A DNA stretch of 64,000 nt from Escherichia coli. GTDB taxonomy: Bacteria; Pseudomonadota; Gammaproteobacteria; Enterobacterales; Enterobacteriaceae. This document shows, one piece after another, positions 54,068 to 57,722 of the stretch. How positions within the stretch are numbered: the stretch's first letter is position 1; every line of letters starts with the position of its first letter. Below the pieces are notes generated by a model that was given only the letters and a program-made list of their open reading frames with translations, had not been told where the DNA came from and did no database searches. A program made the position numbers and the translations under genes. The stretch lies in assembly GCF_003334405.1 (NCBI RefSeq), contig NZ_QOWM01000001.1. The stretch is one strand, 5' to 3'.

Positions 54068-54087
54068 GTTACCAGGTGACCTGTCCT

Positions 54088-54125
54088 GTAGGCCTGATAA
54101 GACGCGTAAAGCGTCGCATCAGGCG
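54088..54125. repeat. REP element after asmA
   Basis: gtaggcctgataagacgcgtaaagcgtcgcatcaggcg. Confidence 0.75.
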
Positions 54126-54340
54126 TTCGCGGCGGCACCATTATATTCTGAATATGTAAGATCGAAGGCTGTTCCGTTCACTTGATGTTCCTCACTACTA
54201 TGGAACGCTCAAGCCGGTGAACGTGCCAGGGTGGCTCAATCGCCACCACCCTGGCAACCCGGGCTCCCGGCGGTAAATCGCCGCTGGCGCGGTTCCCTCA
54301 TCTTATTCCTTTCGGCTATCGGGTAAAATGACCGATACCA

Positions 54341-55924
54341 TCACACCTCGTACTTCAACTCGCCATCCTTATGCAGCGGAATAATCTGCACCTTCTGCAC
54401 GCGATGGCTTTCCACCTGCAACGTTTTAAGCAAATAATCCCCCACCTGAACTTCTTCGCCAGGTTTTGGAATACGCTGTAAATATTCCATCAACAGCCCG
54501 GCAATGGTGTGATATTCACGTTTTTCATCCAGCGGCAGCGGCACATATTGCACCAGATCTTCCAGCGGCATATGACCATTCGCCGTCCAGGAACCGTCCG
54601 CATTCTTCTGAATATCATGGCGGGCGTCGATCTCTTCCACTTCGTTCGGTAAGTTACCGGCAATGGTTTCAGTGACGTCACTTAATGTCACAATCCCTTC
54701 CACCGAGCCAAACTCATCCACCACAAAAGCAAAGTGTGTGCGGGCATTACGGAACTGCTCCAGGGCAGGTAACAACGGCAAGGTTTCCGGGAACACCAGC
54801 GGCTGGCGAATCAACACCCGCAGGTTGAGCGGTTCGCCGCGCAGTGACTGTTGTAGCAGGTCGATAACGTGAACAACACCGAGCAAATCTTCTGCGTCAT
54901 CACCGTCGGTAACCACCAGCCGCGTATGCTGATTTCGCTCCAGCAACTGGCGGATTTCTTCTTCCGGCGCGTTGAGATCGATATGCTCAATATCGTGGCG
55001 CGACGTCATAATGCTGCTGACAGTACGCTGGTTAAGATTAAGTACCCGCTCAATCATCCGCCGTTCCTGCGGATTAAAGATCTGCTGGTTACCATGATCG
55101 ACCAGCATGGACGCGGTTTCGGCGTCCAGTTCCGCATCTTCTTTTTGCCCGCTAAGCAGGCGCATTACCGCTTCGGTAGTCCGCTGGCGTAGCGTCTGGT
55201 TAGCGGAAAGAAAACGTCGCCGGTTAAAGATAGCCAACTGATTGAGCGCCTCGATCATCACCGAGAAACCAATGGCAGCGTACAGGTAGCCTTTCGGAAT
55301 GACGAAGCCGAAACCTTCTGCCACCAGGCTAAAGCCAATCATCAACAGGAAGCTTAAGCAGAGAATAACGATGGTCGGGTGGCTATTAACGAACTGGGTT
55401 AACGGCTTGCTGGCCATCAACATCAGGCTGATAGCGATAACCACGGCGGCCATCATGACCAGTAAATGGTCGACCATCCCGACGGCGGTAATCACTGAGT
55501 CGAGTGAGAAAATGGCGTCCAGCACCACAATTTGCGTCACCACGCCCCAGAACTTCGCACCTTTGCGTTGTGTGGGATTATTGCTGTCTTTCCCTTCCAG
55601 CCGTTCGTTCAGCTCCATCGTGGCTTTGAACAACAGGAAGAAACCACCAAACAGCATGATTAAGTCGCGGGCGCTAAAGGTAAACGAGCGGAAGCTGAAC
55701 AGCGGTTGAGTCAGGGTGACCAGCCAGGAGATTGACGCCAGCAGTAACAGGCGCATTAACATCGCCAGCAGCAGCCCGGTAACCCGTGCGCGGTCGCGCT
55801 GCTTCGGCGGTAGTTTTTCGGCGAGGATGGCAATAAAGACCAGGTTATCAATGCCGAGGACCAGTTCGATCACAATCAGCGTGATTAACCCGGCCCAGAT
55901 AGACGGATCGGCAATCCATTCCAT
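54341..55924 (-). CDS. yegH: TerC-family membrane protein with CBS and CorC/HlyC domains
   Basis: ORF 54341..55990; product from [35 protein letters not shown]... (TerC-type TM region) with C-terminal CBS pair. Confidence 0.9.
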
Positions 55925-56392
55925 AGTAAGTACAAAACCTATTCGTTGTATGACAAATGTCACAATTCGATCATGGATAAATCGGGGCAAAAATGCAATG
56001 TTGCAGCACTATTTATCTCATATTATTTGAGGGTAATAACCTTACATTATCCCTGAATTAAAAGTAGTAATAATAAAACATTATTTAAGAAATATCGCAT
56101 GTGGAGACGCAATATTAAATATTGTCAACCTAAAGAAACTCCTAAAAACCATATTGAATGACACTTAATATAATTCTTAAAAATAGCCAATTGCCGAATT
56201 GTTACCTTGCCTGCTATTCCGTTAGCTGTAACACTTCCTCCTGCATTATTGGAGAGCCAATATTCAATTACCATAATGTCACCTTATATTCGGAAGTTAA
56301 TTTCCGCAATAACCCTTTCTCATCAACAATTGTATGCAGAGAGGGTTTGAAAAATTAAGCTAAATCAGTGTATTGGTAGCTAAAAAGCCAGG

Positions 56393-56404
56393 GGCGGTAG
56401 CGTG
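56393..56404 (+). promoter_or_regulatory. ops element (RfaH recruitment site) within the JUMPstart of the colanic acid operon leader
   Basis: ggcggtagcgtg, exact ops consensus, about 180 bp upstream of the wza start. Confidence 0.85.
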
Positions 56405-56582
56405 TCTGGATGCCTGAAAGACCAGTCTGAATTATTCTGTCAATAGCCTGCGGATGAAATCAATTTTTTTAGGACTGATGCCAGTTAAATTTTTATTCAA
56501 TTAACTGCAAGGTAAATGTGCATGGCGACATTGCTATTAATAGTGCACAGGATAATTACTCTGCCAAAGTGATAAATAAACA

Positions 56583-57722
56583 ATGATGAAATCCAAAATG
56601 AAATTGATGCCATTATTGGTGTCAGTAACCTTGATAAGCGGTTGCACAGTACTTCCGGGCAGCAATATGTCGACGATGGGCAAAGACGTCATCAAACAGC
56701 AGGACGCTGATTTCGATCTCGACAAAATGGTGAATGTTTATCCGCTGACCCCGCGCCTGATTGACCAATTACGCCCACGCCCGAATGTAGCGCGCCCCAA
56801 TATGACGCTGGAAAGCGAGATCGCGAATTACCAGTATCGCGTCGGGCCGGGGGACGTTCTTAATGTCACCGTCTGGGATCACCCGGAACTCACCACGCCA
56901 GCCGGTCAGTACCGCAGTTCCAGCGACACCGGCAACTGGGTACAGCCTGACGGCACTATGTTTTACCCGTATATCGGCAAGGTTCACGTAGTTGGGAAAA
57001 CGCTCGCTGAAATCCGCAGTGATATTACCGGGCGCTTAGCGACGTACATCGCTGACCCGCAGGTGGACGTTAATATCGCCGCCTTCCGCTCACAAAAGGC
57101 CTATATCTCCGGACAGGTGAATAAATCCGGCCAACAGGCGATCACCAACGTGCCACTGACCATTCTCGACGCCATCAACGCCGCAGGTGGCCTGACCGAC
57201 ACCGCTGACTGGCGCAACGTGGTGTTAACACACAATGGTCGTGAAGAACGCATTTCTTTGCAGGCGCTGATGCAAAACGGCGACCTCAATCAGAACCGAC
57301 TGCTTTACCCCGGCGATATTCTCTATGTGCCGCGTAATGATGATCTGAAAGTATTTGTGATGGGTGAAGTGAAGAAACAGAGCACCCTGAAAATGGACTT
57401 TAGCGGCATGACCCTGACTGAAGCTCTGGGCAATGCCGAAGGTATCGACATGACCACCTCCAACGCCAGCGGCATCTTTGTCATTCGTCCGCTGAAAGGC
57501 GAGGGCGGGCGTAACGGCAAGATTGCCAATATCTACCAGCTGGATATGTCCGATGCGACGTCGCTGGTGATGGCGACAGAATTCCGCCTGCAACCTTATG
57601 ACGTGGTGTATGTCACCACCGCCCCGGTTTCCCGCTGGAACCGTCTGATCAATCAGTTGCTGCCAACTATTAGCGGTGTCCGTTACATGACGGATACAGC
57701 CAGCGACATTCATAACTGGTAA
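56583..57722 (+). CDS. wza: outer-membrane polysaccharide export lipoprotein Wza
   Basis: 379 aa [21 protein letters not shown] (lipobox)... Confidence 0.95.

Follow-up and report, generated by a model that had tools for sequence, protein, structure and literature searches.

The 658-bp spacer between the divergent genes yegH and wza of Escherichia coli, at positions 55925-56582 of a 64,000-nt stretch of contig NZ_QOWM01000001.1 (assembly GCF_003334405.1; the whole stretch is called the window below), holds the control region and predicted 5′ leader of the colanic acid (cps/wca) operon. We read it as an Rcs-activated, H-NS-silenced promoter followed by an RfaH-loading leader, a model to which we assign a probability of about 0.88. 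The AT-rich DNA would be silenced by H-NS; once the Rcs envelope-stress phosphorelay has been switched on and RcsA stabilized, RcsA-RcsB would bind upstream at a canonical box (56086-56099), with two invariant boxes of the half-site type (56131-56147 and 56166-56182) as likely auxiliary sites, and would activate a weak, conserved sigma-70 promoter (56207-56235) that starts transcription near 56242. About 150 nt into an untranslated leader of ∼341 nt, RNA polymerase would pause at the operon polarity suppressor (ops), where the exposed non-template strand would recruit RfaH. RfaH is then expected to exclude NusG, to suppress pausing and Rho-dependent polarity, to counteract H-NS roadblocks and probably to help load ribosomes onto wza, which apparently lacks a good Shine-Dalgarno sequence; polymerase would then be able to finish the ∼20-kb operon. 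Within this scheme, it is the exact start site, the boxes that are occupied and the ribosome-recruitment step that we infer.

The features concerned, in the order of the + strand, are:

55925-56582, no strand: yegH-wza divergent intergenic region, 658 bp, AT-rich with H-NS-type composition, delimited from open reading frames and the K-12/O157 annotation
56086-56099, + strand: box 1, TAAGAAATATCGCA, best canonical RcsAB-box match (9/14 to TaAGaatatTCctA, all five key positions)
56123-56147, + strand: invariant block TGTCAA..T......A.TCCTAAAA with box 2 (TAAAGAAACTCCTA, 56131-56144), an RcsB-type right half-site plus A-tract
56166-56182, + strand: box 3, TAATATAATTCTTA plus AAA, the candidate of the initial annotation; RcsAB-like in 10/14 positions, with T replacing the key G4
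56207-56235, + strand: predicted sigma-70 promoter of cps (wza), with -35 TTGCCT at 56207-56212, a 17-bp spacer and extended -10 TGn AACACT at 56227-56235
56366-56404, + strand: JUMPstart element, 39 nt (Rfam RF01707)
56393-56404, + strand (non-template strand for wza): ops, the RfaH loading site, exact 12-mer GGCGGTAGCGTG
56405-56582, + strand: distal leader from ops to wza, of fixed length, with conserved blocks at ∼56430-56445, 56466-56490 and 56535-56582
56583-57722, + strand: wza, first gene of the wza-wzb-wzc-wca operon, a 379-residue open reading frame annotated as Wza in K-12 and O157

The ATG of yegH is the complement of 55922-55924 on the - strand, that of wza stands at 56583 on the + strand, and the gene order around the locus is asmA, yegH, wza, wzb, wzc. 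The spacer was identified as the colanic acid upstream region because it matches K-12 upstream of wza (b2062) and has the same neighbouring genes; Wza homologues carry the Pfam domains Poly_export, SLBB and Wza_C. The K-12 region (NC_000913.3 2137244-2137901) is orthologous, with the same 658 bp, flanking genes and orientation, and differs by 14 substitutions and no indels. These are strain-level single-nucleotide differences only, concentrated in the variable stretch of the leader at 56307-56359, and none falls in boxes 1-3, the predicted -35/-10, the JUMPstart element or the distal leader. Identity of the spacer was ∼98% to K-12 and 99.5% to O157; at ≥ 80% of its length the spacer was found in 4819 of 5426 complete E. 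coli genomes, where the top identity was likewise 99.5% and no genome reached 100%.

The initial annotation had put about 650 bp between yegH and wza, in agreement with the measured length, and had called the region AT-rich, which is borne out by a G+C content of 0.275-0.39 in the spacer versus 0.50-0.58 in both flanking genes; an AT-rich tract relative to its flanks, as at H-NS-silenced loci, is thus present in the window. Its description of the entire ∼650 bp as a leader has to be corrected: judged from the predicted promoter position, only the last ∼340 nt are likely leader, and the 5′ half of the spacer is a divergent regulatory region common to yegH and wza.

Evidence for the proteins acting here comes from chromatin immunoprecipitation sequencing (ChIP-seq) of RfaH, RNA polymerase, sigma-70 and H-NS in strain CFT073 (PMC9765446), in which wza has an identical ops 190 bp before the gene (Data set S2 of that study). 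In wild-type CFT073, wza is bound by H-NS and its initiation is silenced (H-NS/StpA); in a Δhns ΔstpA strain, sigma-70 and RfaH signals appear at wza, with RfaH over wza-wcaL, and the RfaH signal is lost in ΔrfaH (PMC9765446). Transcription of wca has also been described as JUMPstart-RfaH antitermination combined with positive regulation by RcsA/RcsB (PMC9976346, which cites Stout, 1996, and Hobbs and Reeves, 1994, for the antitermination). RfaH recruitment at the wza ops, silencing of wza by H-NS and its RcsAB dependence are thus taken from the literature; all three layers were previously described at this locus, and the biology is known. For E. coli K92, control of colanic acid production by RfaH is reported in the title of a study by Navasa (2014) cited in PMC9765446.

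Our analysis established which sequence elements are present, where they lie, how well they are conserved and to which families they belong. A one-genome-per-species scan of the Enterobacteriaceae returned 80 Wza loci, 76 of them with a divergent yegH upstream, and 77 spacers (those of the window and of 76 species), aligned with MAFFT, supplied all per-column counts given below. Spacer length was ∼650-760 bp in nearly all 76 loci, with outliers of 475-476 bp (three loci) and 806-935 bp (four loci). Conserved blocks stood out at 55956-56000, 56086-56099, 56123-56147, 56164-56182, 56205-56237 and 56366-56404, together with the three blocks of the distal leader; over 56250-56360, immediately past the predicted promoter, conservation collapses, with large insertions and indels.

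Rcs-type boxes upstream of wza

The published RcsAB-box consensus (Wehland and Bernhard, 2000) is TaAGaatatTCctA, in which T1, A3, G4, T10 and C11 are the most conserved bases (PMC4325325, PMC3950696), and the box of the RcsB homodimer is TN(G/A)GAN4TC(T/C)NA (PMC7913699). Box 1 was the only match to TAAGANNNNTCNNA in the window. The relaxed pattern T.RGA....TC..A occurred at the box 1 site in 53 of the 77 sequences, and at either box 1 or aligned positions 56007-56020 in 64; at the latter position it fits 37 other sequences (e.g. TGAGATTTATCTCA), and the window itself has a degenerate CACTATTTATCTCA there with a decayed left half. Near-perfect palindromic boxes of the RcsB/RcsAB type (TGAGATTTATCTCA, TGCGATTTATCTTA) stand at aligned 56007-56020 in many Enterobacteriaceae (loci L010, L015, L061, L064 and L067, among others). 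From the alignment, this looks like binding-site turnover between aligned 56007-56020 and box 1.

We read box 1 as the putative canonical RcsAB operator. Its pseudo-palindrome, T.RGA-N4-TC..A, is also present in the boxes of rcsA (TAAGGATTATCCGA), yjbE (TGAGGTTAATCCTA) and Klebsiella galF (TAAGATTATTCTCA), and it lies far upstream, as do the rcsA sites ∼170 bp before the start. It differs in its right half, TCGCA instead of TCCTA; halves of the TCCTAAAA type are found instead in boxes 2 and 3, which are without the canonical left half. Mutation of the wza RcsAB box reportedly abolishes capsule production (Wehland and Bernhard, 2000). Which 14-mer was meant is deduced here from the capital G of the published consensus, which favours box 1 as the published wza site.

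The other two boxes are better conserved. In the block around box 2, TGTCAA, T56131, A56138 and TCCTAAAA were present in 72-77 of the 77 sequences, and box 3 was nearly invariant. The initial annotation had expected an RcsAB box in the region, correctly in so far as box 1 is of this type, and had offered taatataattcttaa at ∼56171-56185 as a weak candidate. That sequence actually lies 5 bp upstream, at 56166-56180, and corresponds to box 3, whose 14-mer (56166-56179) satisfies four of the five key positions and lacks the fifth, G4, which was found in 0 of the 75 sequences scored. In favour of the candidate remain its near invariance and the 12 bases that it has in common with the rcsA promoter: a 12-nt identity, TTAATATAATTC, with a stretch upstream of E. 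coli rcsA, a length reached in 18 of 2000 shuffles. The rcsA stretch overlaps a YdaT footprint and an upstream RcsA/B ‘box1’, ∼170 bp before the rcsA start (PMC11879457), and RcsAB acting from about -170 at rcsA means that distant sites have a precedent. The resemblance of wza TATTGAATGACACTTAATATAATTC (56152-56176) to K-12 rcsA upstream TAGTGAATTGCCATTAATATAATTC (L210 358-382) takes in the mapped site of YdaT, a regulator of the Rac prophage. By analogy, YdaT might also contact the cps promoter.

Both box 2 and box 3 terminate in TCYTAAAA; the corresponding ends are TCCGAAAA in the canonical rcsA box and TCCTAAAA in the canonical-looking box of yjbE, and a second copy of TCCTAAAA lies nearer to yjbE. 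Across the RcsA-dependent wza, rcsA and yjbE upstream regions, TC[CT][TG]AAAA was observed five times versus 0.17 expected, a count that is partly post hoc as the motif was taken from wza; the yjbE upstream region by itself gave 2 versus 0.06. Three of the four copies in the 64-kb window fall in the yegH-wza spacer. On these grounds, boxes 2 and 3 are probably auxiliary Rcs elements of the half-site type.

Box 3 could instead be the principal RcsAB operator, centred ∼70 bp upstream of the start, with box 1 secondary or irrelevant. Box 3 matches the consensus in 10/14 positions, one more than box 1, and is almost invariant in the 77 sequences where box 1 is variable; its identity with rcsA overlaps the ‘box1 where RcsA/B binds’; its half TCTTAAAA resembles the canonical-box halves TCCTAAAA of yjbE and TCCGAAAA of rcsA; and its centre, near -69.5 if transcription starts at ∼56242, is at the classical position for class I activation. 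We nevertheless regard this arrangement as unlikely, because G4 is one of the five most conserved bases and mutation of the equivalent G in the GAD box abolished binding of RcsB/GadE (PMC2887963), and because a canonical T.RGA....TC..A is retained further upstream in nearly all species, either as box 1 or at aligned 56007-56020.

We also put forward, tentatively and as something that we would not bet on, that cps control depends not on a single RcsAB box and a promoter but on a rigid array spanning genera: three RcsAB-shaped 14-mers at 45- and 35-bp spacing before an invariant extended -10 promoter, in which the full box turns over (aligned 56007-56020 in many genera, 56086-56099 in Escherichia) and 56131-56147 and 56166-56182 carry only an RcsB-type half-site with an A-tract extension (TCYTAAAA). 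Such a signature, found also at the RcsA-dependent promoters of rcsA and yjbE, could separate RcsA-dependent from RcsA-independent targets and may offer YdaT an entry at both cps and rcsA.

Promoter and predicted transcription start

In a position-weight scan for sigma-70 promoters, TTGCCT-17-TGnAACACT ranked first on the + strand of the window spacer. In 76 of the 77 sequences a top-three hit fell on the same aligned position, and the columns of this site were invariant; in most genera the -10 reads AACAAT. The predicted start would lie at ∼56241-56243, a computed rather than a mapped position that gives a leader of ∼341 nt and places ops at ∼+152. A simple promoter scan returned only a non-conserved site at 56250-56277. 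RegulonDB, as cited in PMC9764084, lists for the operon a promoter of the sigma-70 class (Stout, 1996) as well as a predicted one for sigma-E. By eye, a sigma-E-like GGAAGTT...TCTCA near 56292-56322 is a loose match in a non-conserved stretch. Literature searches for a mapped wza start site found none, and full-text searches for the box, promoter and leader sequences gave no relevant match.

A perfect -10 hexamer, TATAAT, at 56169-56174 suggests a different start, near 56179-56183. This would give a leader of ∼400 nt, put the centre of box 1 near -88 and box 2 across the -35 region (a class II position), and make the conserved block at 56205-56237 an element of the transcribed leader instead of a promoter. 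A -35 is often absent from activator-dependent promoters, and an RcsB-type half-site centred near -43 would mimic the RcsA-independent RcsB promoters (rprA and osmC). This start is even less probable than a leading role for box 3. The hexamer reads TATTAA or TATTAT in most genera (T at 56172 in 74 of the 77 sequences, A at 56174 in 42), and the perfect TATAAT is therefore specific to Escherichia, the block around it being invariant for other reasons. The site is absent from the top promoters in the window, from the most frequent top-three sites of the 77 sequences and from the simple scan, whereas in 76 of 77 the one at 56207-56235 keeps its -35, TG and -10 unchanged, with the spacing fixed at 17 bp. 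Both predicted starts, near 56242 and near 56181, lie upstream of ops, and no supporting evidence was found for a start downstream of it; the RfaH ChIP-seq signal in CFT073 implies that ops is transcribed (PMC9765446).

JUMPstart/ops element and predicted untranslated leader

The covariance model of RF01707 matched at 57.3 bits (gathering score 35, E-value 6e-12) over model positions 1-38, i.e. at full length. Its 3′ end, which is ops itself, stands 179 nt before wza on the same (+) strand. Of the ops core GGCGGTAG and 12-mer GGCGGTAGnnTG, the window has the exact form GGCGGTAGCGTG on the coding (non-template) strand, and this was the sole GGCGGTAGNNTG match in 64 kb. By itself the 12-mer is weak evidence, since at least one match arose in 24 of 100 shuffles. 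ops was intact in 73 of the 77 aligned sequences, at 186-199 nt before the wza ATG in nearly all; no conserved open reading frame crosses it in this alignment. JUMPstart elements at or above the gathering score preceded the polysaccharide operon in 18 of 20 related loci, including Klebsiella, where the element stands before wzi. Because it sits within a full JUMPstart match and is conserved in 73/77 at a near-fixed distance, the ops at 56393-56404 is, on this comparison, not a chance match. The exact ops reported at these positions by the initial annotation, as part of a colanic acid operon region with a JUMPstart/ops for RfaH, was thereby confirmed as a real element on the non-template strand, and the RfaH ChIP-seq signal at the identical ops of CFT073 (PMC9765446) agrees with the function assigned to it.

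Other operons with JUMPstart/ops (RF01707) are rfaQ/waaQ, the O-antigen operon wzx/rfb, hlyCABD and kps; rfaQ and wzx of CFT073 carry the same GGCGGTAGCGTG. As in these RfaH operons, ops of wza is on the non-template strand, in what is predicted to be an untranslated leader, at a locus that H-NS binds (PMC9765446). The position of ops differs: its distances from the transcription start and to the gene are, respectively, ∼152 (predicted) and 190 nt at wza, 67 and 71 nt at wzx, and 135 and 634 nt at hly. A further difference is that wza of CFT073 and three other newly found RfaH-bound loci are also silenced at initiation and need an activator (PMC9765446).

That ops is a fossil or chance element without a role in colanic acid expression, elongation being RfaH-independent, is very improbable and already largely refuted: the frequency of the 12-mer in shuffles, the K-12 studies quoted in PMC9765446, which saw RfaH on only two operons under standard conditions, and the loss of JUMPstart from one clade that kept the operon speak for it, but they are set against the full-length covariance match, the cross-genus conservation of ops and of its distance to the ATG, and an RfaH signal at the wza ops that is absent in ΔrfaH (PMC9765446).

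Downstream, 56366-56582 is identical in the window, K-12 and O157. RNAalifold found no conserved RNA fold in the leader after ops (single-sequence z-score -0.57), and no intrinsic terminator was found in the spacer. GC skew was -0.21 over 56100-56299, and the predicted leader start falls in a C-rich, G-poor stretch; a C-rich leader start without an intrinsic terminator would be compatible with Rho loading and with Rho-dependent polarity that is suppressed by RfaH. Judged by eye, the last 20 nt before wza (56563-56582, GCCAAAGTGATAAATAAACA) contain no GGAG, GAGG or AGGA and only a weak GUGAU 9 nt before the ATG. RfaH-aided ribosome recruitment is established for the family, and by analogy the apparent lack of a canonical Shine-Dalgarno sequence is consistent with RfaH helping to recruit ribosomes to wza. 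Within the distal leader, 56467-56504 carries a conserved TTTTAGGA, which is the inverse of TCCTAAAA and also holds a Shine-Dalgarno-like AGGA, with an ATG 3 nt further on that opens an eight-codon reading frame, MPVKFLFN*. A leader peptide MPVKFLFN (ATG at 56478) was rejected, the ATG being ATA or ATT in about a quarter of the species.

Several points weigh against the Rcs-H-NS-RfaH model or parts of it. Conservation, position-weight scores and consensus logic are the grounds for the start near 56242 and for the choice of box 1; the predicted -10 is a weak AACACT (3/6 match), the perfect TATAAT offers an alternative start near 56181 in Escherichia, and box 1 varies more than boxes 2 and 3 (conserved in 55-73 of 77 sequences per column, accepting G or A at position 3). 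The RfaH signal at wza was seen only in the Δhns ΔstpA background of another strain (PMC9765446). Finally, JUMPstart/ops is deleted (aligned 56376-56407) in Pseudescherichia vulneris and relatives (L036, L037, L040), a clade that keeps yegH, wza, boxes 1-3 and the predicted promoter in a spacer of 475 bp from which other variable segments have also been deleted. By its sequence, this clade has a natural ops-less colanic acid operon, and ops is not indispensable everywhere.

Related loci and neighbouring features

The group 1 capsule loci of Klebsiella and E. coli, with an RcsAB box at galF P1 and JUMPstart at P2 before wzi, occupy the same position beside yegH and likewise have both signals upstream of wza-wzb-wzc. 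Klebsiella, however, has one signal in each of two spacers, which are separated by galF and a PAP2 gene. In Klebsiella locus L088, the published RcsAB box of galF, TAAGATTATTCTCA, lies 187 nt ahead of that gene. Neither the yegH-galF nor the orf2-wzi spacer is homologous to the window beyond the yegH-proximal block and JUMPstart, and for this reason they could not decide between the boxes. Near the Klebsiella aerogenes locus there is a Sib antitoxin RNA (Rfam RF00113) and a reading frame for an Ibs toxin (L089 14303-14449), both unrelated to the colanic acid region. Erwinia/Pantoea amsG was not reached by the Wza and YegH protein searches, in which the relatives listed were all at least 82% identical. 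When metagenomes were scanned for the box 2 pattern, the yegH-wza architecture came up again, and everything else was a chance match.

One further conserved feature lies at the other end of the spacer:

55956-56000, - strand: yegH-proximal conserved block, GATCATGGATAA...AAAATGCAA, 70-100% column conservation in the 77 sequences

This block is kept even in the Klebsiella yegH-galF spacers, where the remainder is non-homologous, and no Rfam family matched it. It is presumably a yegH promoter or 5′ untranslated element, outside the cps control region.

A 49-residue ‘hypothetical protein’, WP_162829205.1, is called by RefSeq in O157 and many other E. coli (window 56125-56274, - strand; O157 L001 2700-2849). 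Only 2 of the 77 sequences have its reading frame intact, and the frame runs right across the predicted promoter and conserved Rcs-like boxes; it is almost certainly a spurious gene call. In O157 (L001 223-841), a RelE/ParE toxin and helix-turn-helix antitoxin pair lies between asmA and yegH; the same gap in the window (54068-54340) and in K-12-type strains is only ∼270 bp. In the urinary isolate E. coli KE51 (L083 5072-6108), an IS1 element lies 71 bp from yegH, and the colanic acid cluster is deleted from the promoter region through most wca genes, so that a partial glycosyltransferase pseudogene and wcaM are all that remains before galF. An IS1 insertion between JUMPstart and wza that boosts a capsule phenotype has also been reported (PMC8117528), and the yegH-wza spacer looks like a target of IS1.

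Among the exopolysaccharides under Rcs control in E. coli and its relatives, colanic acid is the main one, and the spacer upstream of wza joins three regulatory layers: silencing by H-NS, initiation by RcsAB and elongation by RfaH. Our analysis mainly confirms the annotation; its modest added value is a comparative map of the invariant bases in 77 sequences, a predicted promoter and two extra Rcs-like boxes. This map could guide the design of reporters or the engineering of capsules.

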